A stretch of DNA of 64,000 bases. Source: Candidatus Pacearchaeota archaeon. GTDB taxonomy: Archaea; Nanobdellota; Nanobdellia; Pacearchaeales; JAPDKA01. The notes under the pieces were generated by a model that made no database searches, was not told the DNA's origin, and was given only the letters and a program-made list of their open reading frames with translations. The DNA lies in contig JAWBVE010000002.1 of assembly GCA_038840695.1 (NCBI GenBank), forward strand, positions 28,170-92,169, written 5' to 3'. Positions 12,621 through 40,423 of the stretch are shown here, piece by piece; position 1 is the first letter of the stretch, and each line of letters begins with the position of its first letter. The position numbers and the translations under genes are program-made.

Positions 12621-12868
12621 GAAAATTTGTGAAAGCTGTGAAATTTCAGTTAGGAAAAGCAGGATTGAGCAGTGGATTTATTGAAAATCTAGCAAAAAGC
12701 TTTAAAAAAAGAGATCTCGTTAGGATTAATGTCCTTAGAAGCCATTCGAGGGATAGAGAAGAAATAAAAAAAGAAGCAAATAAAATTTGTTCAGAGCTTA
12801 GGGCAATAATAGGAAAGGACTTTAAAGCAAGAATAATTGGCTTCACAATCATAATAAAAAAACAATAA
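12617..12868 (+). CDS. YhbY/CRM-domain RNA-binding protein
   Basis: FQLGKAGL...DLVRINVL...IIGFTII pattern; upstream of S19e. Confidence 0.75.
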   Translation: MRKFVKAVKFQLGKAGLSSGFIENLAKSFKKRDLVRINVLRSHSRDREEIKKEANKICSELRAIIGKDFKARIIGFTIIIKKQ

Positions 12869-12955
12869 AACAAAAAAAGAAAAAAAGGAAGGAAGAAAAA
12901 AAGAAGAAAAAATAAAAAAGAAAAAAATAAGAAAAAAAGAAAAGAAAAAAGTAAA

Positions 12956-13384
12956 ATGGCAAAGGTGCTTGATGTTGAACCACAAAAATTTATAACTGAG
13001 TTAGCAACAAAGCTAAAAGGCATAAAAGAGTTTGAAATGCCCCAATGGGCAATGTTTGTAAAAACAAGCTCTGGAGCTGAAAGGCCGCCATTAAGTAAGG
13101 ATTGGTGGTATTATAGAGCTGCGAGCATCTTAAGAAAACTCTATCTAAAGGGCACTATAGGAGTTTCAAGATTGAGAAGATGTTATAAAAGGAAGAAAAA
13201 AGGAAAGGCGTGGCCTGCTAGGCCCTATCTTGGAAGTGGCAAGATAATTAGAGAAATATTAAAGCAGGCTGAAAAGGCTGGACTTGTGGAAAAGCTAGAA
13301 AAGCCAAAAAAAGGTCGAGCACTAACAAAAAAAGGTGTAAGCTTTCTTGAAGGCCTGGCAACTGAAATAGTAAAGAAAAAATAA
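12956..13384 (+). CDS. rps19e: 30S ribosomal protein S19e
   Basis: PQWAMFVKT, WWYYRAASILRKLY and GRALT motifs. Confidence 0.95.
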   Translation: MAKVLDVEPQKFITELATKLKGIKEFEMPQWAMFVKTSSGAERPPLSKDWWYYRAASILRKLYLKGTIGVSRLRRCYKRKKKGKAWPARPYLGSGKIIREILKQAEKAGLVEKLEKPKKGRALTKKGVSFLEGLATEIVKKK

Positions 13385-16519: not shown

Positions 16520-17341
16520 ATGCTAGACTTTAAGCTTGCTGAATTCATTAATCAAATTAGTCCATCGATGAGCAGTGAAAGGCTAATTGAGCTAACTCTA
16601 GAATTTATTTATAAAAAATTTGGACTTGCTGGCTATAGCTTTAATTCAATGCTGAAGGGAAAAGCAACAAGCAAAAAAGCAATTTTCCTATTTAGTAATT
16701 TAATGCTTGAGTTATTCTTTAATAAAAAACCATCACACAAAGTGACTAAAGAGATTGAGCTCATTCTTGCGCTTGCAGAAAAATTTGTTGCTTATGCTGA
16801 AAGCCTTCAACGCTCGAAGAGCTTTGCAACAACAGATAGGCTGACTGGGCTTTTTAATAAGGCTTATTTTATGGGCATCTTAAAAAATATGAAAGCAAGG
16901 CGTGAGCACTTCTGCCTTGCTCTTCTCGATCTTGACAATTTTAAGCGATTTAATGATAGATTTGGTCATCAACAAGGAGATGCATTCTTGCAAGAGCTTG
17001 GCAAGATAATAAAAGAGAATCTAAAGCATGGCGAATTTGCATGTCGTTATGGTGGGGAGGAATTTTGCATAATTTTAAAAAGTAATCTAAAAGAGGCTTA
17101 TTTAAGAATTGATGCACTAAGAAAAAGGATAGCCAACATAAATGGAATTATAACTGCATCAATAGGCTTGGTTGAATCAAGTGATAGCTATGACTTTACT
17201 GAGATTGTGAGAAAAGCTGATGAATTAATGTATAGGGCAAAGAAAACTGGTAAAAATAAAGTTTGTATCGAAAGTAAGAAAGAGGGCTTTTTTTCGAGAA
17301 TAATTAGATTAATAAAAAATAAAAACTTAAAACAAACCTAA
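16520..17341 (+). CDS. GGDEF-domain diguanylate cyclase
   Basis: TDRLTGLFN, DLDNFKRFNDRFGH..GD, RYGGEEF, TASIG and AD..MY.AK..GKN motifs. Confidence 0.92.
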   Translation: MLDFKLAEFINQISPSMSSERLIELTLEFIYKKFGLAGYSFNSMLKGKATSKKAIFLFSNLMLELFFNKKPSHKVTKEIELILALAEKFVAYAESLQRSKSFATTDRLTGLFNKAYFMGILKNMKARREHFCLALLDLDNFKRFNDRFGHQQGDAFLQELGKIIKENLKHGEFACRYGGEEFCIILKSNLKEAYLRIDALRKRIANINGIITASIGLVESSDSYDFTEIVRKADELMYRAKKTGKNKVCIESKKEGFFSRIIRLIKNKNLKQT

Positions 17342-17991: not shown

Positions 17992-18807
17992 CTATAGCTC
18001 AAGCTCATCAAGCTTTGTTCTGACTTTTTTATAGAGCTCATCAGTAATATGAGTATAAATCTGTGTTGTATCAAGGCTTTTATGGCCAAGCAGTACTTGG
18101 ATTGTTCTTATGTCAAGGCCAGATTCAAGCAAATGGGTTGCATAGCTATGCCTAAGCTTATGAGGAGTTACTTTTTTCCTTAGCCCCAGGCTTTTTGCAA
18201 GCTTGCTTAATATTTTTTGTATATTTCTTGCTGTTAGTGGCTTTTCCTTTGAAAATACATAAGCCCAGCCCTGTCTTGCTGAAAGCCATTCCTTAAGCTC
18301 CTCTCTAAGCTTTGAGGGCAAAAAAATACGCCTTTCTTTATTCCCCTTTCCTATAATGACTGCTTCACCCTTTTCAAGATCTAGTGCAGAAGGCTTCATG
18401 TTGACAAGTTCACTAACACGCATTCCAGTATAATAAAGCATCTTAATAATTAGTGCTGACTTCTTTGTTTTTGCAGCACTAATCATTTTGCTAATTTCAT
18501 CTCTGCTTAGCACTTCTGGAAGCCTTTCTGGCTTTTTTGGCCTTGCTATATTAGCCATTAGCTCCTTGCCAACAAGTCTTGAAGCAAAACGAACTGCTGC
18601 CATTGCCAAAATCATGGATGAATTTGACTTATCAGCCATACTTGCAAGCCATGCCTTAACATCATCCTCACTTATTTGCTCTGGCTCCTTTTTGCAAAAA
18701 TCGAGCAGCTTTGAAACAAAGTAAAGATAGTTTTTTATTGTAAGCTGGCTTTTCTTCTGTAGCTTAAGCTCTGTCTCAAGCTTTCTTAGGAATTCCTCTT
18801 TTTGCAT
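17992..18807 (-). CDS. xerA: XerA-like tyrosine recombinase
   Basis: N-terminal SAM-like domain; catalytic residues intact in TGMRVSEL, GKGNKER, HKLRHSYATH, LLGH and TTQIYT. Confidence 0.9.
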   Translation of the reverse strand: MQKEEFLRKLETELKLQKKSQLTIKNYLYFVSKLLDFCKKEPEQISEDDVKAWLASMADKSNSSMILAMAAVRFASRLVGKELMANIARPKKPERLPEVLSRDEISKMISAAKTKKSALIIKMLYYTGMRVSELVNMKPSALDLEKGEAVIIGKGNKERRIFLPSKLREELKEWLSARQGWAYVFSKEKPLTARNIQKILSKLAKSLGLRKKVTPHKLRHSYATHLLESGLDIRTIQVLLGHKSLDTTQIYTHITDELYKKVRTKLDELEL

Positions 18808-18870
18808 TCAATATAAAGCGAACTCTTTTTAAATTTTTTGAAAAGCCAAAACAAACATCAAGAACTTTCA

Positions 18871-18898
18871 TGTTCGTCTAATCTTTCTTATACGAACT
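18871..18898. other. dif-like Xer recombination site (11-6-11)
   Basis: TGTTCGTCTAA-TCTTTC-TTATACGAACT: inverted arms match at 9 of 11 positions, with TAA/TTA flanking a 6-bp spacer; about 65 bp upstream of xerA. Confidence 0.7.
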
Positions 18899-19477
18899 TT
18901 TCAAGCTCTTTTTACAGCTTCTTGCGGCTTGTTTTGGTATTTGCATGCTCGTCGTGCTCTGCTTGCAAAAATTTTTCAGCAAAAATTAAAAGTTTTAGCC
19001 TCTTTTAGCGACTTTGCTTGATTTTAGCTCTGCAATATGGCACTCTTCAAGATATTTTACTTGCTTGCCAATCACAAGGCCATGCTGCCACTCACTTTTT
19101 TCCGGCTACTTTCTAGCTACTGCTAGACTTCGTTTGTAGAGCTTTAGACCTACTACCAAACTTTTATTTCCAACTTCTTAAACCTTGGATCTTTCTTAAT
19201 TTCACTCACATCTAAACCTTGCGGCGCTATCCTTGCCTTACCTTGCCTTACATTGCAAACAAGAAATGTTGAGCTAGTTAAGTCAGTCATAGGGAGTGAT
19301 GTTATAATGAATAGATTTGCTGATTATTGACAAGGCAGGATAGCTTGCCGTTTAAGTCACTAGTAAGTGATAAAAAGGCTTTTTTCTTTATGTTAAAAGT
19401 TTTAAGCAAAGATTAAAAGTTTTTGCATCAACCGAAAAATTTTTATTCTTTTAAAATGAATATAATTATGTAAGAGG

Positions 19478-20653
19478 ATGGGCTTGAATATGGAAAAAGG
19501 ACTGGAAAAAGAGCTTGATAGAAGTGAACTTGAAAAAATACTTGAAAGCTATAGAAGGCTAGGAAGTATAAATAAAACTGTAAAGGAAGTTAGACACAGT
19601 TATCATACCCTTCAGAAATATTTTAAAGATGAGCTTGAAAAAATAAGAAAAGAAAGGCAGGAGGAAAAAGAGCAAAAAATTATTAATGCTTATAAAGAGC
19701 TTGGACAGATTAAGAAAGTAGCTAAATTGCTTAAAGTAGATAGGAAAACTGTAAGGAAAGTATTAAGAAAGCATGGAATTAAGATAAAGCGTTGGAGTGG
19801 TGCGCGTTCTCTAAGTAAGGAGGAGGTTGAAAAGATAATAAAAACCTATGCTGAATTAGGGAATACTAAAAAAACTGCTAAGGCCTTAGGCCATGCTCAA
19901 ATTACTGTAGCCAAATACTGTAGAGAGCACTTTGAGTTAAACAAGATAAATAAAGTGAGAAGAAAATATGATTGGGAAAAAATAAGGGAGCTATATTATA
20001 AATATGACAGGCCTAAGGATGCTGCAAGAGAAATTGGTTGCTCACCAAAAACTGTAAGAGAAGTTTGGCACAAGTTTGGGCTACATGTACAGAGAAAAAA
20101 GCCAAAAATTAATGAAACTGAAATTTATAATATAAAGAAAAGATATTTTAATGGAGAAGGCATAGTAAATATATCGCGTGATCTAAAAAGAAGGACAGAT
20201 GTAATTATGAAGTACCTTAATTGGACTCCTTTGAGTGAAGGTTTGATCTTTTGTTTTTATGATAATGGAGATAAAGTAAAGAAAAGCATAGAAACAGTCA
20301 CAAACATAATAGAAAAATATGCTGAATGCACAGAAAAAATTTATTCGGATAGGCCTGAGTATGAAAAATATTACAAGATTGCTAACGAGATTTTTCCAGG
20401 AAAATTTAAGGAAATACTAATCATTTCATTCAAAAAAAGAAGCGATGAGGGCTTGGAGGAAAGGATTGAGAGCTATATAAAATTCAGACAATTGTGCTCA
20501 GAAGTAATCAATTTTTTTGCACGAAACAACATACAACTTGAGCTTTTTACACAGGAAATTTCTAAAGCAACTTACTATACTCTCTTTCCTGAAGCATCTA
20601 AAACCTTTTATGAATTTGATCAAAAAGGTGAAGGTGTTGAGCAGAGCATTTAA
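19478..20653 (+). CDS. Tandem multi-HTH DNA-binding protein
   Basis: About five repeats of I...Y..LG.....A..L.....TV; unassigned C-terminal domain. Confidence 0.7.
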   Translation: MGLNMEKGLEKELDRSELEKILESYRRLGSINKTVKEVRHSYHTLQKYFKDELEKIRKERQEEKEQKIINAYKELGQIKKVAKLLKVDRKTVRKVLRKHGIKIKRWSGARSLSKEEVEKIIKTYAELGNTKKTAKALGHAQITVAKYCREHFELNKINKVRRKYDWEKIRELYYKYDRPKDAAREIGCSPKTVREVWHKFGLHVQRKKPKINETEIYNIKKRYFNGEGIVNISRDLKRRTDVIMKYLNWTPLSEGLIFCFYDNGDKVKKSIETVTNIIEKYAECTEKIYSDRPEYEKYYKIANEIFPGKFKEILIISFKKRSDEGLEERIESYIKFRQLCSEVINFFARNNIQLELFTQEISKATYYTLFPEASKTFYEFDQKGEGVEQSI

Positions 20654-20725
20654 ATTGCATTAAAAAGCATAAAAAATCATAAAAATTTTTAGTAAAATTT
20701 ATAAACAGAGATAATTTTTTATGTT

Positions 20726-21352
20726 ATGTTTTTTAATTTTTTCAAAAAAAGAAAACTTGAAAGCGAGATTGAAAAATTAAAGGAAGTAATGAAGAATTCT
20801 TTTTCAAATGTAAAGGATGATTTAAATAAAATTTCCAGTTGGATTTTTTATTTGAATGAAAAAGATAAAGATCTCGACGAGAAAATTAGCAAATTACAGG
20901 AAGAAATTGAAGAAATAAAAGAGCTGCTAGCCTTTTCGTCAGGGGCGTTTAAACAGGTGTTTAAACAGGTGTTTAAACACCAAACAGCTGTTGAAGGTGT
21001 TCAAACAGCTGTTCAAACAGGTGTTCAAACACCAAAAATTAATAAAAAATTAACAAAGTTAGCAACAAAAAATATAATTTTGGAAGGCTTAACATTAATG
21101 GAAAGAGCAATTTTGTGGGTATTGGCAAACACTGACTTAAAGCTAAGTTGTGAAGATATCGCAAGAGTGCTTGGAAAAAGTGAAAACACAATAAGAGGAC
21201 AACTAAATAGCCTTAAGTCAAAGTGGCCACAGCTAATAAATGAAATAATTGAAAAAAATGGAAAAAAGAGATATTATATTGATGAAAGAACAAAAGAGCT
21301 TATTTTTAAAATAACAAAGACAAAAATTAAAGCTAAAATAAAATTACGTTAA
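20726..21352 (+). CDS. Coiled-coil / repeat linker / C-terminal winged-helix protein
   Basis: N-terminal SF..VK.D coiled coil; C-terminal LT..ER.IL...LS..DIA..LGKS..TIRGQLN.L wHTH. Confidence 0.75.
   Translation: MFFNFFKKRKLESEIEKLKEVMKNSFSNVKDDLNKISSWIFYLNEKDKDLDEKISKLQEEIEEIKELLAFSSGAFKQVFKQVFKHQTAVEGVQTAVQTGVQTPKINKKLTKLATKNIILEGLTLMERAILWVLANTDLKLSCEDIARVLGKSENTIRGQLNSLKSKWPQLINEIIEKNGKKRYYIDERTKELIFKITKTKIKAKIKLR
20947..21034 (+). repeat. Two blocks of three 12-bp tandem repeats (consensus GTTYAAACAGST) with palindromic core
   Basis: Copies start at 20947, 20959, 20971 and 20999, 21011, 21023. Confidence 0.9.
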
Positions 21353-21828: not shown

Positions 21829-22722
21829 TTAGTCGAGCTGCTCAAGGGCTTCGAGGCTTGATATCTTTAATATTTCTCTCGGAATTGAAAGAAAAACTTC
21901 CTTGCTATGATAGCATTCTTTCTGAATTGGAATGCCTTTAAGAATTAGCCTATTTACAAGGTCTCTAACAGAACTTGGAGCAAGGCCTGTTTTCTCTGCA
22001 AGGGTTTTGTAGCTTATCTTTAAGCCTGCCTGCTGCATAGAATAGATAAGCACAAATATCTCAAATTCTTTCTTTGTTAAAGATTTAAAACGCCTTGCAA
22101 GGATTTTTTTATAATTATTAACCATATGCTCGATTTTTTCGAGCTCAGCTTTGTTTTCTTGCTCTTGTTGCTGAAGAGGGCCAAGGCTTTGTAAATGCTC
22201 TTGTTGTTCTTGTGACTGTTGCCCTCGCTGTTGTTGCTGCTGTGGCTGCTGTAGTTGTTGTGGTTGCAGCTGTTTCAATTGCTGTGACTCTTGCATTTCT
22301 TTAAAGGTTTTGGCTTGAATTTCAGAGTTTTGTTGGTTTTGTTGTATAGTGGAGATTGGCGAAAGGTTCGTTTTAATTTGACGTAGGATTGACGTAGATC
22401 TGTTGGAAATGTGTTGGAAATGTGTTGGAACCCCTTCATTTCCTTTGGAACGGCTGAAATAAGGCTTATTTCCTTCAATTTTTTCTTTATTTTGCATAGG
22501 AAATAAAGGTGTGTTGGAAATGTGTTGGAAATGTGTTGGAAATGTGTTGGAATTTTCCAACACATGTTTATACGAACTTTTCAGCATATTCTTAGCAATT
22601 TCTAGTTCCTTCTTTATAGTTTCTAAATCCCTTCGCATCATAAGAAGTTCATTAAAAATAAAATTAATATCTTGCTTCACAGCCGCAAAAGCTTTCTTTA
22701 TTTTTTCTTCTTCCTTTTCCAT
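21829..22722 (-). CDS. Coiled-coil / repeat and poly-Q linker / C-terminal winged-helix protein (candidate origin-associated factor)
   Basis: N-terminal AF..VKQD coiled coil; C-terminal LT.KE..IF..IY...SYK.LA.K..L..SSVRD.V..L..KG wHTH. Confidence 0.75.
   Translation of the reverse strand: MEKEEEKIKKAFAAVKQDINFIFNELLMMRRDLETIKKELEIAKNMLKSSYKHVLENSNTFPTHFQHISNTPLFPMQNKEKIEGNKPYFSRSKGNEGVPTHFQHISNRSTSILRQIKTNLSPISTIQQNQQNSEIQAKTFKEMQESQQLKQLQPQQLQQPQQQQQRGQQSQEQQEHLQSLGPLQQQEQENKAELEKIEHMVNNYKKILARRFKSLTKKEFEIFVLIYSMQQAGLKISYKTLAEKTGLAPSSVRDLVNRLILKGIPIQKECYHSKEVFLSIPREILKISSLEALEQLD
22378..22565. repeat. 11-bp iteron-like repeats (TGTTGGAAATG x3 and x4 plus one inverted copy; TTGACGTAG x2) flanking an inverted ORB-like pair
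   Basis: Copies at 22401, 22412, 22423; 22512, 22523, 22534, 22545; inverted TTCCAACACAT at 22555-22565. Confidence 0.9.
22430..22512. promoter_or_regulatory. Inverted ORB-like pair around a T-rich spacer (intragenic origin candidate)
   Basis: Minus strand 22430-22451 reads GTTCCAAAGGAAATGAAGGGGT; plus strand 22492-22512 reads TTGCATAGGAAATAAAGGTGT. Confidence 0.65.
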
Positions 22723-30687: not shown

Positions 30688-31065
30688 TTACTTCAGTTTT
30701 GGCATAGGTAAATGATAAGGCAGCCCAAGTTGATCTTCAATAAGAAGAGCCTTCAAATTGCATTTAGTCAAGATAAAATTAAAAATTAATTTTGAAAGCT
30801 CTTTCTCTTTTTTCCATCCTTTTAAAATTTCTTCTGCTCTCTTCTTCTCTTCAGCATAATTAAGATAACCAGCAAGAATTATCTTCGCATTTTTTTCATA
30901 ATCTAATTCGAATTCAAAAGGAAAAACTAAAACCTTTTTATTCTCAATTTTTAACTCAGATTCTTCCGGATCTTTTAAATTAAGTCGTGCTGAAACTTTC
31001 ACATTCCCTATTCTTTGTTCTCGCTCTGCAGAAATTTTTGTAAAAAATATATTCAATATAGGCAT
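30688..31065 (-). CDS. Hypothetical protein
   Basis: 125-aa beta-rich ORF (FTKISAER...FEFELDY...LP..LPMP). Confidence 0.65.
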   Translation of the reverse strand: MPILNIFFTKISAEREQRIGNVKVSARLNLKDPEESELKIENKKVLVFPFEFELDYEKNAKIILAGYLNYAEEKKRAEEILKGWKKEKELSKLIFNFILTKCNLKALLIEDQLGLPYHLPMPKLK

Positions 31066-31251
31066 TTTGTTTGTTTTTTGTTTTGTTTTTTTATTTTGTT
31101 TTTTATTTTGTTTGTTTTTTGTCTTTTGTTTATTCTTTGTTTTTATATCTTATGATTTTTATGTATTTTTAAATTTATTCAATTCGATTTTCCTTGCCAC
31201 TTAAACGAATTGTGTCAGCCTTTTGTGTTAGCTTTCTTGGTTTAATCTAGT

Positions 31252-31610: not shown

Positions 31611-31910
31611 CATCCCCTTTATTTCTTTTGGAGAAAAATTTAAAAATGGGTTAAATTTTTCTGTAGGCTTGATAGAAAAAATTTAAAAATTTTATTGTTT
31701 TATAATATATATTTCAACGATGTACATAATTAAACATTATTTTTTATAATACTATTTTTTTATCCACACTTTTACTATTTATAACATTATGTTGCAGCTA
31801 TTCAAAAGAAAAATAAGGGTTTTTTTAATTTCTTATGGAAAAAAGATCTCAGCTTTATGAATAAAAAATTTCGACGTAACTTTAAAGGAGTTTCCACAGG
31901 AAATATAGCA
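31611..31910. promoter_or_regulatory. Candidate replication origin upstream of cdc6
   Basis: ORB-like TCCAAAAGAAATAAAGGGG (minus, 31614-31632), TTCAAAAGAAAAATAAGGGT (31801-31820) and TTCCACAGGAAATATAG (31892-31908) around a very AT-rich stretch. Confidence 0.7.
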
Positions 31911-31969: not shown

Positions 31970-33166
31970 ATGAATTTTAAACTTGACAAGATATTTGACA
32001 ATGTAATAAAAAAAAGCATTTTCCAAAACAAGTCAGTTTTACTTTCAGATCATACACCTACTACAATTTTGCATAGAGAGCAACAAATAAAACAGGTAGC
32101 AAAAATACTTTCATGTGCGCTTAGATTAGAGAAGCCAAGCAATCTTTTTATTTATGGCAAAACAGGAACCGGCAAAACACTAGTCATAAAATATATCATT
32201 AACGAATTATTAAAAAAAACTAAAGAGCTTAATTTGGCTTTAAATATAATTTATACGAATTGCAAATTAAAAAAAGTTTCAGATACTGAGTATAGAATAA
32301 TAGCAGAACTTATAAATTTGCTTGGTAGCAAAGTTCCAGCGACAGGCTTGCCTACAGACCAAGTTTATAAAAAATTTATTGAGCTAGTAGATGAAAAGCA
32401 GCAACTTTTGATTATAGTACTAGATGAGATAGATGAAGCTGTAAAGAAGATTGGTGATGCTTTCCTATATAATTTAACAAGGCTTAATTCAGAGCTCATA
32501 AATTCCCAAATAAGCCTTGTTGGGATAAGCAATGATTTAACTTTTCTTGATTCGCTTGATCCTCGTGTTAAATCAAGTTTAAGTGAGGAGGAACTAGTTT
32601 TTCCACCATACAATGCATTACAACTTCAAGATATATTGAGAGAAAGGGCAAAAAGAGCTTTCAAGAGAGGAGCAATAAGTAAAGGAGTTATTGAAAAAAT
32701 AGCAGCGCTGGCAGCAAAAGAGCATGGTGACGCAAGAAGAGCTATCGATTTACTTAGAGTAGCTGGAGAGCTTGCTGAGCGAGAAGGAAAGCTAAAATTA
32801 ACTCTTGACCTTATTGATAAGGCTATCGAGAAGATAGAGAGAGATAAAATTATTGATTTAGTAGAGACACAACCAAGGCATCATCAGCTAATACTTTTTG
32901 CTATAATCGAGATGGCAGAAAAAAAGGAAAAGGAAAAAATTTACACAGGAGATATTTATAATAAGTACGTCGAGCTTTGTCAAGAGCAAAGGCTTGAGCC
33001 CCTAACTCAAAGAAGAGTAAGTGATATAGTGGCTGAACTTGATATGTTAGGCATAATCAATGCCCAAGTTATAAGCAAAGGCAGATATGGCAGAACGCGA
33101 GAAATAAAAATAAACTTACCTCAAAGCCTAATTCTTAAAATTAAATCAATAATAAACCAGGCATAA
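31970..33166 (+). CDS. cdc6: Orc1/Cdc6 replication initiator
   Basis: GKTGTGKT, LDEID, LDPRVKS, FPPYN, GDARRAIDLLR motifs and C-terminal wHTH with GRYGRT. Confidence 0.96.
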   Translation: MNFKLDKIFDNVIKKSIFQNKSVLLSDHTPTTILHREQQIKQVAKILSCALRLEKPSNLFIYGKTGTGKTLVIKYIINELLKKTKELNLALNIIYTNCKLKKVSDTEYRIIAELINLLGSKVPATGLPTDQVYKKFIELVDEKQQLLIIVLDEIDEAVKKIGDAFLYNLTRLNSELINSQISLVGISNDLTFLDSLDPRVKSSLSEEELVFPPYNALQLQDILRERAKRAFKRGAISKGVIEKIAALAAKEHGDARRAIDLLRVAGELAEREGKLKLTLDLIDKAIEKIERDKIIDLVETQPRHHQLILFAIIEMAEKKEKEKIYTGDIYNKYVELCQEQRLEPLTQRRVSDIVAELDMLGIINAQVISKGRYGRTREIKINLPQSLILKIKSIINQA

Positions 33167-39295: not shown

Positions 39296-40423
39296 ATGGG
39301 AGAAAAAATATTCAAAAAAATTGGCAAATATCTTGTACCTTATTTAGTTGCCTCTATGATTAATGGCGCCATTGTTAGCGATACTTATGCAAAACGAGCA
39401 AAAAACACAAAATTTGCAGAACAAGTGATGAAGGAAGCTAACACTTGGTACAACTTAAATCAAGATTATGTAGAGAAGTATCGTCTAAACTCATTTTTTC
39501 CAGCCTTTAGAAGAATGGAGGAATATCGTTCTTACATAGAGCGTGCAGCAAAGGAAAGTGGTTTAGATAAGTGCATATTGATGGGGCTAATAGCTGTTGA
39601 GTCTCAAGGAATATTACGTGCAAATTCATATGCTAAAGCTGGGGGGCCTATGCAATTGTTAGTAGGTTTTGCAAGAAAGCTCCGTATACCAATGACTAAA
39701 TGGGAAGACCGTAGGTATAGTGTAGATTCAATACCCCCAGCAGCAAAAAAGTTAGCAGAGCTTATTGAGGAATATGGCTTAGTTGACGCATTAATAGCTT
39801 ATAATGCCGGGGAAGATGATGCACAAGAAGTTGATAATATTGAAAAATGGAAACACAAGCGAAAATATATCCCTCGCCAAACAAAGGATTATGTTCCGAA
39901 AGTTATGGCAGCTATAAAAGCATGCAGGATTTATGAAGAGCAACGCAACAATAGCATAGTAAAAGTAAAGCCAGGAGATAATTTATTAAAAATTGTGGAA
40001 GAATGTGAAGAGAGAGGATTCGACGTGAATTTGCGTAAAATAAAGCAAATAAATCATATAGACAATCAAAACAAAATCTATGTTGGCCAGACAATTTATT
40101 GCAGTGGTGAATATAATAAAGACATATATGCTAATGCAAGAAATTATCGTGTTGCACGGGGTGACAATCTAGAAACGATAGCAAGGAAATTTGGAGTAAG
40201 TACTTATGATATAGTGAAGTTAAATCCACAGGTGATAGATTGGTCAATGCTTAAGCCAGGAATGGTTCTGAGAGTTCCAAAACAAAGAATCCAGGAGGCA
40301 AGTCAAATAAGGAATAAGCCAAGCACCAAAACAATCAAAAAATCAGCGCTAAATCAAAACCAACCCAAAAAAATCAAAACGCCACCTAGGCAAAGGCGCA
40401 GCGCGGCCTACTACAGAAGATAA
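39296..40423 (+). CDS. Lytic transglycosylase (SLT) with two LysM domains, MltD-like
   Basis: IAVES (catalytic Glu), AGGPMQL, AYNAG and TKDYVPK motifs; LysM VKPGDNL...IYVGQTI and YRVARGDNL...LKPGMVLRVP; N-terminal hydrophobic signal. Confidence 0.9.
   Translation: MGEKIFKKIGKYLVPYLVASMINGAIVSDTYAKRAKNTKFAEQVMKEANTWYNLNQDYVEKYRLNSFFPAFRRMEEYRSYIERAAKESGLDKCILMGLIAVESQGILRANSYAKAGGPMQLLVGFARKLRIPMTKWEDRRYSVDSIPPAAKKLAELIEEYGLVDALIAYNAGEDDAQEVDNIEKWKHKRKYIPRQTKDYVPKVMAAIKACRIYEEQRNNSIVKVKPGDNLLKIVEECEERGFDVNLRKIKQINHIDNQNKIYVGQTIYCSGEYNKDIYANARNYRVARGDNLETIARKFGVSTYDIVKLNPQVIDWSMLKPGMVLRVPKQRIQEASQIRNKPSTKTIKKSALNQNQPKKIKTPPRQRRSAAYYRR

Follow-up and report, generated by a model that had tools for sequence, protein, structure and literature searches.

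One DNA word in two reading frames: a putative protein-binding array inside a winged-helix gene near the likely replication origin of a Pacearchaeota archaeon

Why would a gene spell nearly the same run of nucleotides twice and read it in two different frames? The question is raised by an 88-bp stretch (20947..21034) of a protein-coding gene, here termed gene A, which lies within 64,000 nucleotides of DNA (hereafter the window) from a Candidatus Pacearchaeota archaeon (assembly GCA_038840695.1, contig JAWBVE010000002.1, positions 28,170 to 92,169). The assembly examined comprises 644,521 bases in 10 contigs with 34–36% G+C, and the nearest named relatives of the window's proteins are “Candidatus Pacearchaeota archaeon” metagenome-assembled genomes. 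Taken as a whole, the evidence moderately favors the view that the stretch is a double-stranded-DNA binding array for the coiled-coil/winged-helix product of gene A itself. The array falls into two blocks and a junction within one open reading frame (ORF):

20726..21352, plus strand: gene A, 208 amino acids (aa), with a predicted long N-terminal helix, low-confidence linker and C-terminal winged helix-turn-helix (HTH)
20947..20982, within gene A: block 1, three 12-bp units, GTTTAAACAGGT at 20947 and 20959 and GTTTAAACACCA at 20971
20981..20998, within gene A: junction, a full unit CAAACAGCTGTT (20981–20992) and then the degenerate unit GAAGGT
20999..21034, within gene A: block 2, GTTCAAACAGCT at 20999, GTTCAAACAGGT at 21011 and GTTCAAACACCA at 21023, of GTTCAAACAGST type

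Block 1 is read in phase 0 and gives FKQV FKQV FKH (codon split G-TTT-AAA-CAG-GT); block 2 is read in phase 1 and gives VQTA VQTG VQTP (codon split GTT-CAA-ACA-GST). The translation of the plus-strand ORF 20726–21352, which contains both blocks, runs ...GAFKQVFKQVFKHQTAVEGVQTAVQTGVQTPK... / ...AFKQVFKQVFKHQTAVEGVQTAVQTGVQTP... across the array. The blocks are offset by 52 bp, that is, 1 mod 3, and the source of the frame shift is the junction unit CAAACAGCTGTT, which is itself offset by 7 bp from block 1. An earlier note on this DNA had described three FKQV units followed 52 bp later by three near-identical VQTx units in another frame, and the sequence confirms that description. Tandem Repeats Finder reports the same arrangement as 20947–20979 (period 12, 2.8 copies, 100% matches) and 20998–21031 (period 12, 2.8 copies, 95% matches).

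The motif TGTTYAAACA is matched seven times at five sites in the window (two palindromic sites count on both strands), compared with a mean of 0.37 in shuffled controls, of which 0/100 reached seven. A scan of all 644,521 bases, as proposed in the earlier note, found one more exact site (C1:143422) and no other cluster. When half-sites are counted across the assembly, the array holds 12 in a span of 150 bp and no other place has more than four; the array is the sole such cluster in the 644 kb. The suggestion that the core of the repeat is a perfect palindrome held only in part: two units (20958 and 20970) form the perfect palindrome TGTTTAAACA and the others do not, the first unit starting with CGTTT. 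What is conserved is not the 10-bp palindrome as such; the unit is the half-site AAACA/TGTYY, spaced by G/C-G/C (ACA-SS-TGT). In the window's array, the half-sites alternate every 6 bp.

A tandem repeat of this kind could in principle be the product of slippage or misassembly confined to one assembly, an explanation that deserves almost no weight here. Logan contigs do break within the repeat, as expected of short-word graphs. However, in 4/4 runs from two studies, one of which may be the window's own source, such contigs match 20600–20968, 20939–20986 and 20957–21250 with 0 mismatches and no indels. An identical gene A protein is found on six contigs, and the same array recurs in 73 other species-level genomes. 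Because the four runs show no differences and the identical protein recurs, the repeat is not an assembly artefact, and the concern in the earlier note that it might be specific to one assembly is removed by the identical contigs of all four runs. In total, eight public runs carry the stretch, all of them hot-spring metagenomes from two studies, with no RNA run among them.

Two further candidates were rejected. An overlapping gene finds no place here, as the other frames of the 88 bp fall within no listed ORF of at least 50 aa. Programmed frameshifting was dismissed on the grounds that the heptamer in the gene's frame is G-UUU-AAA-C and not X-XXY-YYZ, the arrangement of a −1 slippery site, and that a shifted block 1 hits TAA at once. 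A search of the window with Rfam at gathering thresholds returned three tRNAs only and no RNA family at the array.

The distinction between selection on the peptide and selection on the DNA can be drawn from the codons of orthologs. A comparison set of 80 related loci yielded 65 sequences under a strict peptide pattern (64/80 loci plus the window) and 74 genes under a looser rule (73/80 loci plus the window); the 74 orthologs share 43–70% protein identity with the window's protein (median 47%). In the VQT units of the 65 sequences, Gln is written CAA in 65/65 at each of three positions, compared with 66% in the background of the same genes, and Thr is written ACA in 65, 59 and 63 of 65, compared with 43%. 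Val is GTT or GTC, rarely GTG and never GTA, although GTA accounts for 32% of the background, and the variable residue is GCT, GGT, CCT or CGT and never GCA, though GCA is the commonest background codon for Ala (47%). Across the 74 genes, rare codons stand just upstream of the VQT units, namely CAG in 97% (background 29%) and GTG in 100% (background 21%). Columns 91, 95 and 99, occupied by A, G, P or R, have a majority residue in 49%, 36% and 45% of genes and a third-base T in 100%, 99% and 99%. The columns matching the junction are likewise kept as DNA. At the invariant winged-helix residues T155, G158 and Q159, by contrast, the commonest codon reaches 46%, 30% and 68%. Mean third-base conservation is 0.852 in the 26 array columns and 0.598 in the 164 others (Mann-Whitney p = 1e-9), and codon entropy at conserved residues is 0.33 bits in the array and 1.04 bits elsewhere (p = 5e-5), both p values treating related sequences as independent.

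These near-fixed codons in 74 orthologs, next to winged-helix residues that are free at their third positions, bear out the earlier proposal that selection acts on the DNA and not on the peptide; the pattern that was to speak for the opposite, orthologs keeping the peptide with divergent codons, is not what the 74 genes display. That selection acts at the nucleotide level on the repeat is close to certain. It is accordingly very improbable that the FKQV and VQTx repeats are themselves the target, with uniform codons arising through codon bias and tandem-repeat homogenization. Such an explanation could draw on the invariance of Q86, T87, V89, T94, V96 and T98 in 32 aligned proteins, and on an A+T-rich genome that favors CAA and ACA. 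It conflicts, however, with the far more varied codons in the remainder of the same genes, with the fixation of the rare codons CAG and GTG where the motif requires them, and with the three columns that vary in residue and not in third base. Furthermore, the motif also occurs in non-coding DNA of relatives, and in distant relatives the peptide differs while the layout persists (see below).

The use of one DNA word in several frames is not limited to the window. In the 74 genes, AAACASS is read 76 times in phase 0 (K-Q/H-x), 276 times in phase 1 (Q/K-T-x) and 13 times in phase 2 (x-N-x); it appears in two phases in 54 genes and in three phases in seven. Multi-frame reading is therefore a property of the family, with 61/74 genes using two or three phases, and not a quirk of the window's genome. 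The same DNA would be read in two frames because it is the nucleotides that are under selection, and the peptide would be their largely incidental spelling (FKQV..., VQTx...) in whichever frame applies. The change from T to C between block 1 and block 2 may represent the single concession to coding: the C is needed in block 2, as GTT-TAA would bring a stop into the block-2 frame, and the T can be kept in block 1, where TTT and TTC both encode Phe. In keeping with the constraint from coding, C forms make up 181/205 occurrences inside the gene, and the T form TGTTTAAACA is the commonest form in upstream non-coding DNA (59/89).

This upstream DNA provides the second line of evidence, and two features of the window have to be introduced with it:

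20690..20707, plus strand: TATA-like box aaaatttataaaca, about 20–35 bp before the gene A ATG, where relatives have aaagatttaaata
19478..20653, plus strand: 391-aa multi-HTH ORF, located where most relatives carry the upstream array

The TATA-like box is presumably the promoter of gene A, an assignment that follows the archaeal TATA consensus. In relatives, a second cluster of half-sites lies in non-coding DNA 50–300 bp before the start codon, beyond the conserved TATA-like aaagatttaaata. The density of half-sites per kb is 58 in the array, 16 in the region from −400 to −40 and 1.2 in other parts of the loci. At least four upstream half-sites occur in 53/73 loci and at most one in 14, the window included. 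Their spacing is loose, with 10, 12, 13 and 21 bp the commonest distances, and asymmetric variants occur in both orientations (TGTCCAAACA three times forward and 17 times in reverse, TGTTCAAACA six and four times). The window itself has no upstream motif array in 18780–20725, with 0 half-sites in 360 bp, yet its array of 12 half-sites is the highest count among the 74 genes; the window's lineage has lost the upstream array while the intragenic array stands at full strength. The 391-aa ORF, which matches HTH_23, HTH_28 and a Tc3-transposase-like HTH and lies between a Xer-like tyrosine recombinase (17995–18807) and gene A, finds no counterpart among the 80 related loci. It may have been inserted in this lineage alone and have taken the place of the upstream motif array.

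Sites in both orientations in non-coding DNA bear on whether the array works as DNA or as RNA. An mRNA-level constraint, in which hairpins formed by the inverted repeats stall ribosomes, govern the stability of the mRNA or serve as RNA ligands of a protein, would find encouragement in the alternating complementary half-sites of the array and in its predicted fold in the window (−40.4 kcal/mol compared with −19.7 ± 2.95 for shuffles; z = −7.0; 0/200 as good), although any series of half-sites that alternate with their complements should fold strongly. The 74 orthologs, however, share no conserved structure according to RNAalifold (six pairs, −1.07 kcal/mol) and no covariation (covariation term +0.07), the central S-S is often GG or CC and hence not self-complementary, and in 53/73 relatives half-sites of either orientation precede the TATA-like box. 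A constraint on the mRNA is thus judged improbable, and the 88-bp stretch probably represents an array bound by protein as double-stranded DNA. It would consist of about seven half-sites, with the core AAACA on one strand and TGTYY on the other, separated by G/C-G/C spacers and mostly 12 bp apart.

The product of gene A offers itself as a candidate binder. An AlphaFold2 model built on a 32-row alignment predicts a single long helix at residues 2–83 (82 residues), a 45-residue linker at residues 71–115 with a predicted local distance difference test (pLDDT) score below 50, and a confident winged HTH at residues 112–184 (pLDDT > 90 at 121–190). The linker is the part coded by the array, and its predicted disorder should allow it to accept a peptide dictated by the DNA. 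Foldseek matched the C-terminal domain to 19 PDB chains at E <= 0.001, led by MepR, AbfR2, PerR and SmtB (best match MepR, 3eco_A, E = 8e-5; AbfR2 is 6cmv). In a Pfam scan, no family reached its gathering score, generic HTH families alone being matched (best HTH_11, 18.6 bits, cut-off 25), and neither a ParBc/ParB-Srx domain nor an initiator domain was found. A two-copy complex prediction for residues 1–85 scored 0.05 where the mark is 0.42, which is evidence neither way. The family is widespread: 929 of 1557 candidates are homologs at E <= 0.001, Pacearchaeota wherever named, and relatives are encoded by 456 of 512 candidate stretches from species-representative genomes. A family profile matches 27/29 sampled genomes of the same order and 213/401 genomes sampled across the phylum; a large share of the weaker matches span the N-terminal part only, and the 213 include four genomes flagged as unpublished (G249, G327, G365 and G401).

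Further indications come from distant relatives, studied in loci from 20 other genomes. Two of them (L081 and L082) carry CGTTCATGAACG four times at the same place in the gene, read as SFMNV and VHER; a third (L087) carries GTTCAAAC with period 8, read in three frames; and L089 and L099 carry CGTTTAGACG or CGTTTAAACG five times upstream. Their recognition helices differ between the classes, with the sequences RGQ(I/L)N, RRH(I/V)N and K(N/T)I(I/L)C, a pattern that is consistent with motif and recognition helix changing together. In 5/20 distant loci, a 13- to 39-mer is common to the upstream DNA and the linker-coding part, compared with a maximum of 12 letters for words shared between upstream DNA and the parts coding for the N-terminal helix or the winged helix. 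In a G+C-richer genome, the gene-A-like locus L096 has the 13-mer TCTCACTTTTTAC in both upstream DNA and linker-coding part, a different motif in the same layout. Four gene-B-like loci (L093, L094, L098 and L091; gene B is described below) share a 16–39-letter word between the same two places, composed of the box GTTCCAnnGGAAATAAAGGGG followed by TCAACAAT repeats.

With sites inside gene A, and in relatives also before it, with an array that is unique in the assembly, and with distant relatives whose repeats differ, self-binding is the most likely arrangement indicated, and we put the chance that gene A's own product binds the array at somewhat better than even. The array would sit in DNA coding for a flexible linker between the long N-terminal helix and the C-terminal winged helix, and the winged-helix domains of protein A, held on long flexible tethers, would fill neighboring half-sites in either orientation, which would explain the loose upstream spacing. 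Once bound, the array could serve as a roadblock (autorepression) or as a loop anchor controlling gene A, and in relatives the intragenic array could loop to the upstream one. Alternatively, together with an initiator box in gene B (see below), it could form a fixed nucleoprotein landmark by the replication origin.

Several points weigh against self-binding of this kind. A half-site spacing of 6 bp is too tight for a classical rigid winged-helix dimer, to judge by those of MarR type. A looping or promoter-occlusion model cannot apply to the window as it does to most relatives, the upstream array being absent there, and the strong fold leaves room for an RNA effect in the window's lineage. The co-change of motif and helix comprises three clades only, and the three motif classes still share a GTTYAAAC-like or GTTCA core. 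Among the comparisons, seven of the 80 loci were dropped when the pattern or the start-codon rule failed, and the p values above carry their assumption of independence. Finally, the binding itself, the putative binder and the effect of binding are read from sequence by inference, as are the dimer binding and the centromere-like or autoregulatory role proposed in the earlier note.

The neighborhood of gene A brings other possible binders into consideration:

21829..22722, minus strand: gene B, 297 aa, convergent with gene A; predicted helix, repeat-rich linker and winged helix
23101..23367, minus strand: gene C, coding for a small winged-helix protein of 88 aa; its HTH_69 match of 24.8 bits falls short of the 27-bit cut-off
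22431..22450, minus strand: initiator-box-like TTCCAAAGGAAATGAAGGGG inside gene B, coding for S-K-G-N-E-G
22401..22430, minus strand: 11-bp perfect repeats directly after the box, coding strand of TTCCAACACAT type, 2.7 copies in three frames
22510..22552, minus strand: 11-bp perfect repeats, 3.9 copies in three frames (PTHFQHISNT), preceded by the inverted copy TGTGTTGGAAAATTCCAACACA
31614..31903: likely oriC, with inverted initiator-box-like sequences at 31632–31614 (minus strand, relaxed) and 31892–31903 (plus strand) around an A+T-rich stretch

Gene B is present in 78/80 related loci and gene C in 74/80, and A, B and C form a conserved trio with A first. A BLASTP comparison of proteins A and B gave no significant similarity (E = 0.17), the label “paralog” resting on common architecture, N-terminal profile matches and synteny. 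Gene B shows the same phenomenon as gene A with other words: its repeats run through three frames, and its box is kept as DNA while the middle codon varies (40/79 orthologs, those the pattern caught). Behind the box, gene B orthologs carry (ACAG)n, which translates into TDRQ repeats. The core of the box, TTCCANNGGAAA, occurs twice in the 644-kb assembly, once in gene B (22450–22439) and once at 31892–31903, 67 bp upstream of cdc6. Judged by sequence and by the general archaeal origin recognition box (ORB) consensus, the gene B box is a match to the box beside cdc6/orc1 in the same genome.

The cdc6/orc1 gene (31970–33163) is followed by the PolD DP1 and DP2 genes and is the sole Cdc6/Orc1 gene found in the window; the region 31614..31903 is likely the chromosomal origin. 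The arrangement corresponds to the ORB-DUE-ORB layout (DUE, DNA unwinding element) that PMC12141716 describes for archaeal origins. The cumulative GC skew of contig C2 does not turn at either cdc6 or the A/B locus and gives no information on the origin. A T-rich repeat was also noted at 31064–31144, near the likely origin. In the window, 10.6 kb separate gene A from cdc6, and in five other genomes gene A lies about 4–17 kb from the single Cdc6_C match of each, the relative orientation being shared by 6/6; the linkage may reflect inherited gene order among kin genomes, the six cases not being independent.

It is conceivable, though we consider it unlikely, that the array binds another factor, be it protein B, protein C, Orc1/Cdc6 or a further partner, and acts as an origin-proximal centromere-like or origin-organizing element rather than as an operator of gene A. 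The conserved trio, the gene B box whose core is otherwise found only upstream of cdc6, the single array in the assembly and the cdc6 linkage in all six genomes would fit such a role. Bacterial parS sites likewise lie near oriC and mostly in coding sequences, as is the case for 9/10 in P. aeruginosa according to PMC4368675. On the other side, the Pfam scan found no ParB-like domain in protein A, and no ParA/CbiA-type gene was seen among the 37 of 62 window ORFs scanned, the sole CbiA match above cut-off lying on contig C5. Each paralog also seems to bear its own distinct motif in its own gene, which fits self-recognition better, and the kinship of the six genomes allows the linkage to be no more than inherited gene order. 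A bolder extension, to which a similarly low probability is given, is that A, B and C constitute an unrecognized origin-proximal nucleoprotein system, in which the linker-coding DNA of the binders' own genes houses the sites where Orc1 and two coiled-coil winged-helix proteins dock. If true, the locus would be both factory and landmark (a centromere or origin organizer), and the “disordered linkers” of the superfamily would be by-products of DNA sites.

Other parts of the window hold observations unrelated to the array. The plus-strand ORF at 16520–17338 encodes a GGDEF diguanylate-cyclase domain protein (E = 4.5e-36), with a match in 1/80 related loci; GGDEF domains are unusual in archaea. 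At 39296–40420, also on the plus strand, an SLT lytic transglycosylase domain is combined with two LysM domains, a peptidoglycan-cutting enzyme in an archaeal genome, with possible relevance to gene transfer or to an interaction with a host or prey. Finally, a 95-base run of almost only A (12856–12950; period-8 AAAAAAAG) overlaps an ORF (12649–13023) and the start of the S19e gene region.

A literature search found nothing published on the protein A family or its embedded sites. A 2026 preprint on 208 complete Nanobdellota genomes mentions, in the part available, a winged-helix regulator as a marker gene only, and its supplements might list the family. Literature searches also found no experimentally defined regulator-operator pair or segregation system in DPANN archaea. 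The locus would represent a natural case of two codes in one DNA, with a putative protein-binding array dictating part of a protein sequence, and the constraint persists at 43% protein identity and beyond, a divergence at which synonymous positions have usually been randomized. Should the gene encode its own binder, the family would supply ready-made pairs of winged helix and DNA site for uncultured DPANN archaea. Through the link to the origin and the initiator box of gene B, chromosome organization in these tiny cells would become testable with purified proteins. For annotation, the case warns that conserved “low-complexity linkers” may be kept for reasons unrelated to the peptide.

How does this arrangement compare with known systems? 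Plasmid centromere arrays such as ParR/parC, TubR/tubC and the omega heptads share the principle of many short repeats about one helical turn apart, filled cooperatively by small dimeric binders. Those arrays differ in being intergenic and plasmid-borne and in having mostly ribbon-helix-helix binders with an adjacent motor partner, none of which was seen here.

ParB-parS systems resemble the locus in their short palindrome-like sites near the origin (here 10.6 kb from cdc6) and inside protein-coding DNA. In B. subtilis, one parS lies inside spo0J itself. In P. aeruginosa, eight of the sites fall in the ori domain (PMC4368675). The parS sites are 16-bp palindromes whose outer letters are alike (TGTT...AACA) and whose motif core differs, and they occur as single sites, compared with a dense array of about seven half-sites at one place. 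The candidate binder here is an archaeal coiled-coil/winged-helix protein lacking a ParB/Srx domain, and its conserved neighbors are two winged-helix genes, with no adjacent ParA among the ORFs scanned. With no ParB domain in the Pfam scan and no neighboring ParA among the 37 of 62 window ORFs scanned, the locus does not belong to the ParB-parS family.

The origin of phage lambda lies in gene O, and gene A is similar in that repeated putative sites for a protein stand mid-gene, in the linker-coding part of the protein's own gene. However, the array is not flanked by a conserved unwinding element rich in A+T, as the A-rich insertion at 21034–21057 occupies columns present in only 1–29 of 74 orthologs, and protein A has no initiator domain. 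On these two grounds the locus is not a lambda-type origin, and a separate canonical Cdc6-adjacent origin-like region lies 10.6 kb away.

A parallel in fold is offered by the autoregulated MarR/ArsR repressors, a likeness based on the model and Foldseek, with no Pfam family threshold passed, and one in layout by intragenic auxiliary operators such as lac O2 in lacZ and gal OI in galE. The sites of most relatives lie upstream of the promoter as well as in the transcribed region, on both sides of the promoter, so that looping or a roadblock is possible. MarR/ArsR proteins are compact dimers with a flanking-helix interface and a palindromic operator whose half-sites stand about one turn apart. 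The half-sites here alternate every 6 bp. The modeled domain order of protein A, with long N-terminal helix, 45-residue disordered linker and C-terminal winged helix, differs from that of MarR. In contrast to known intragenic operators, the sites stand in the regulator's own gene, where they shape its own linker, and they do so in about seven copies that are conserved across the order and beyond.

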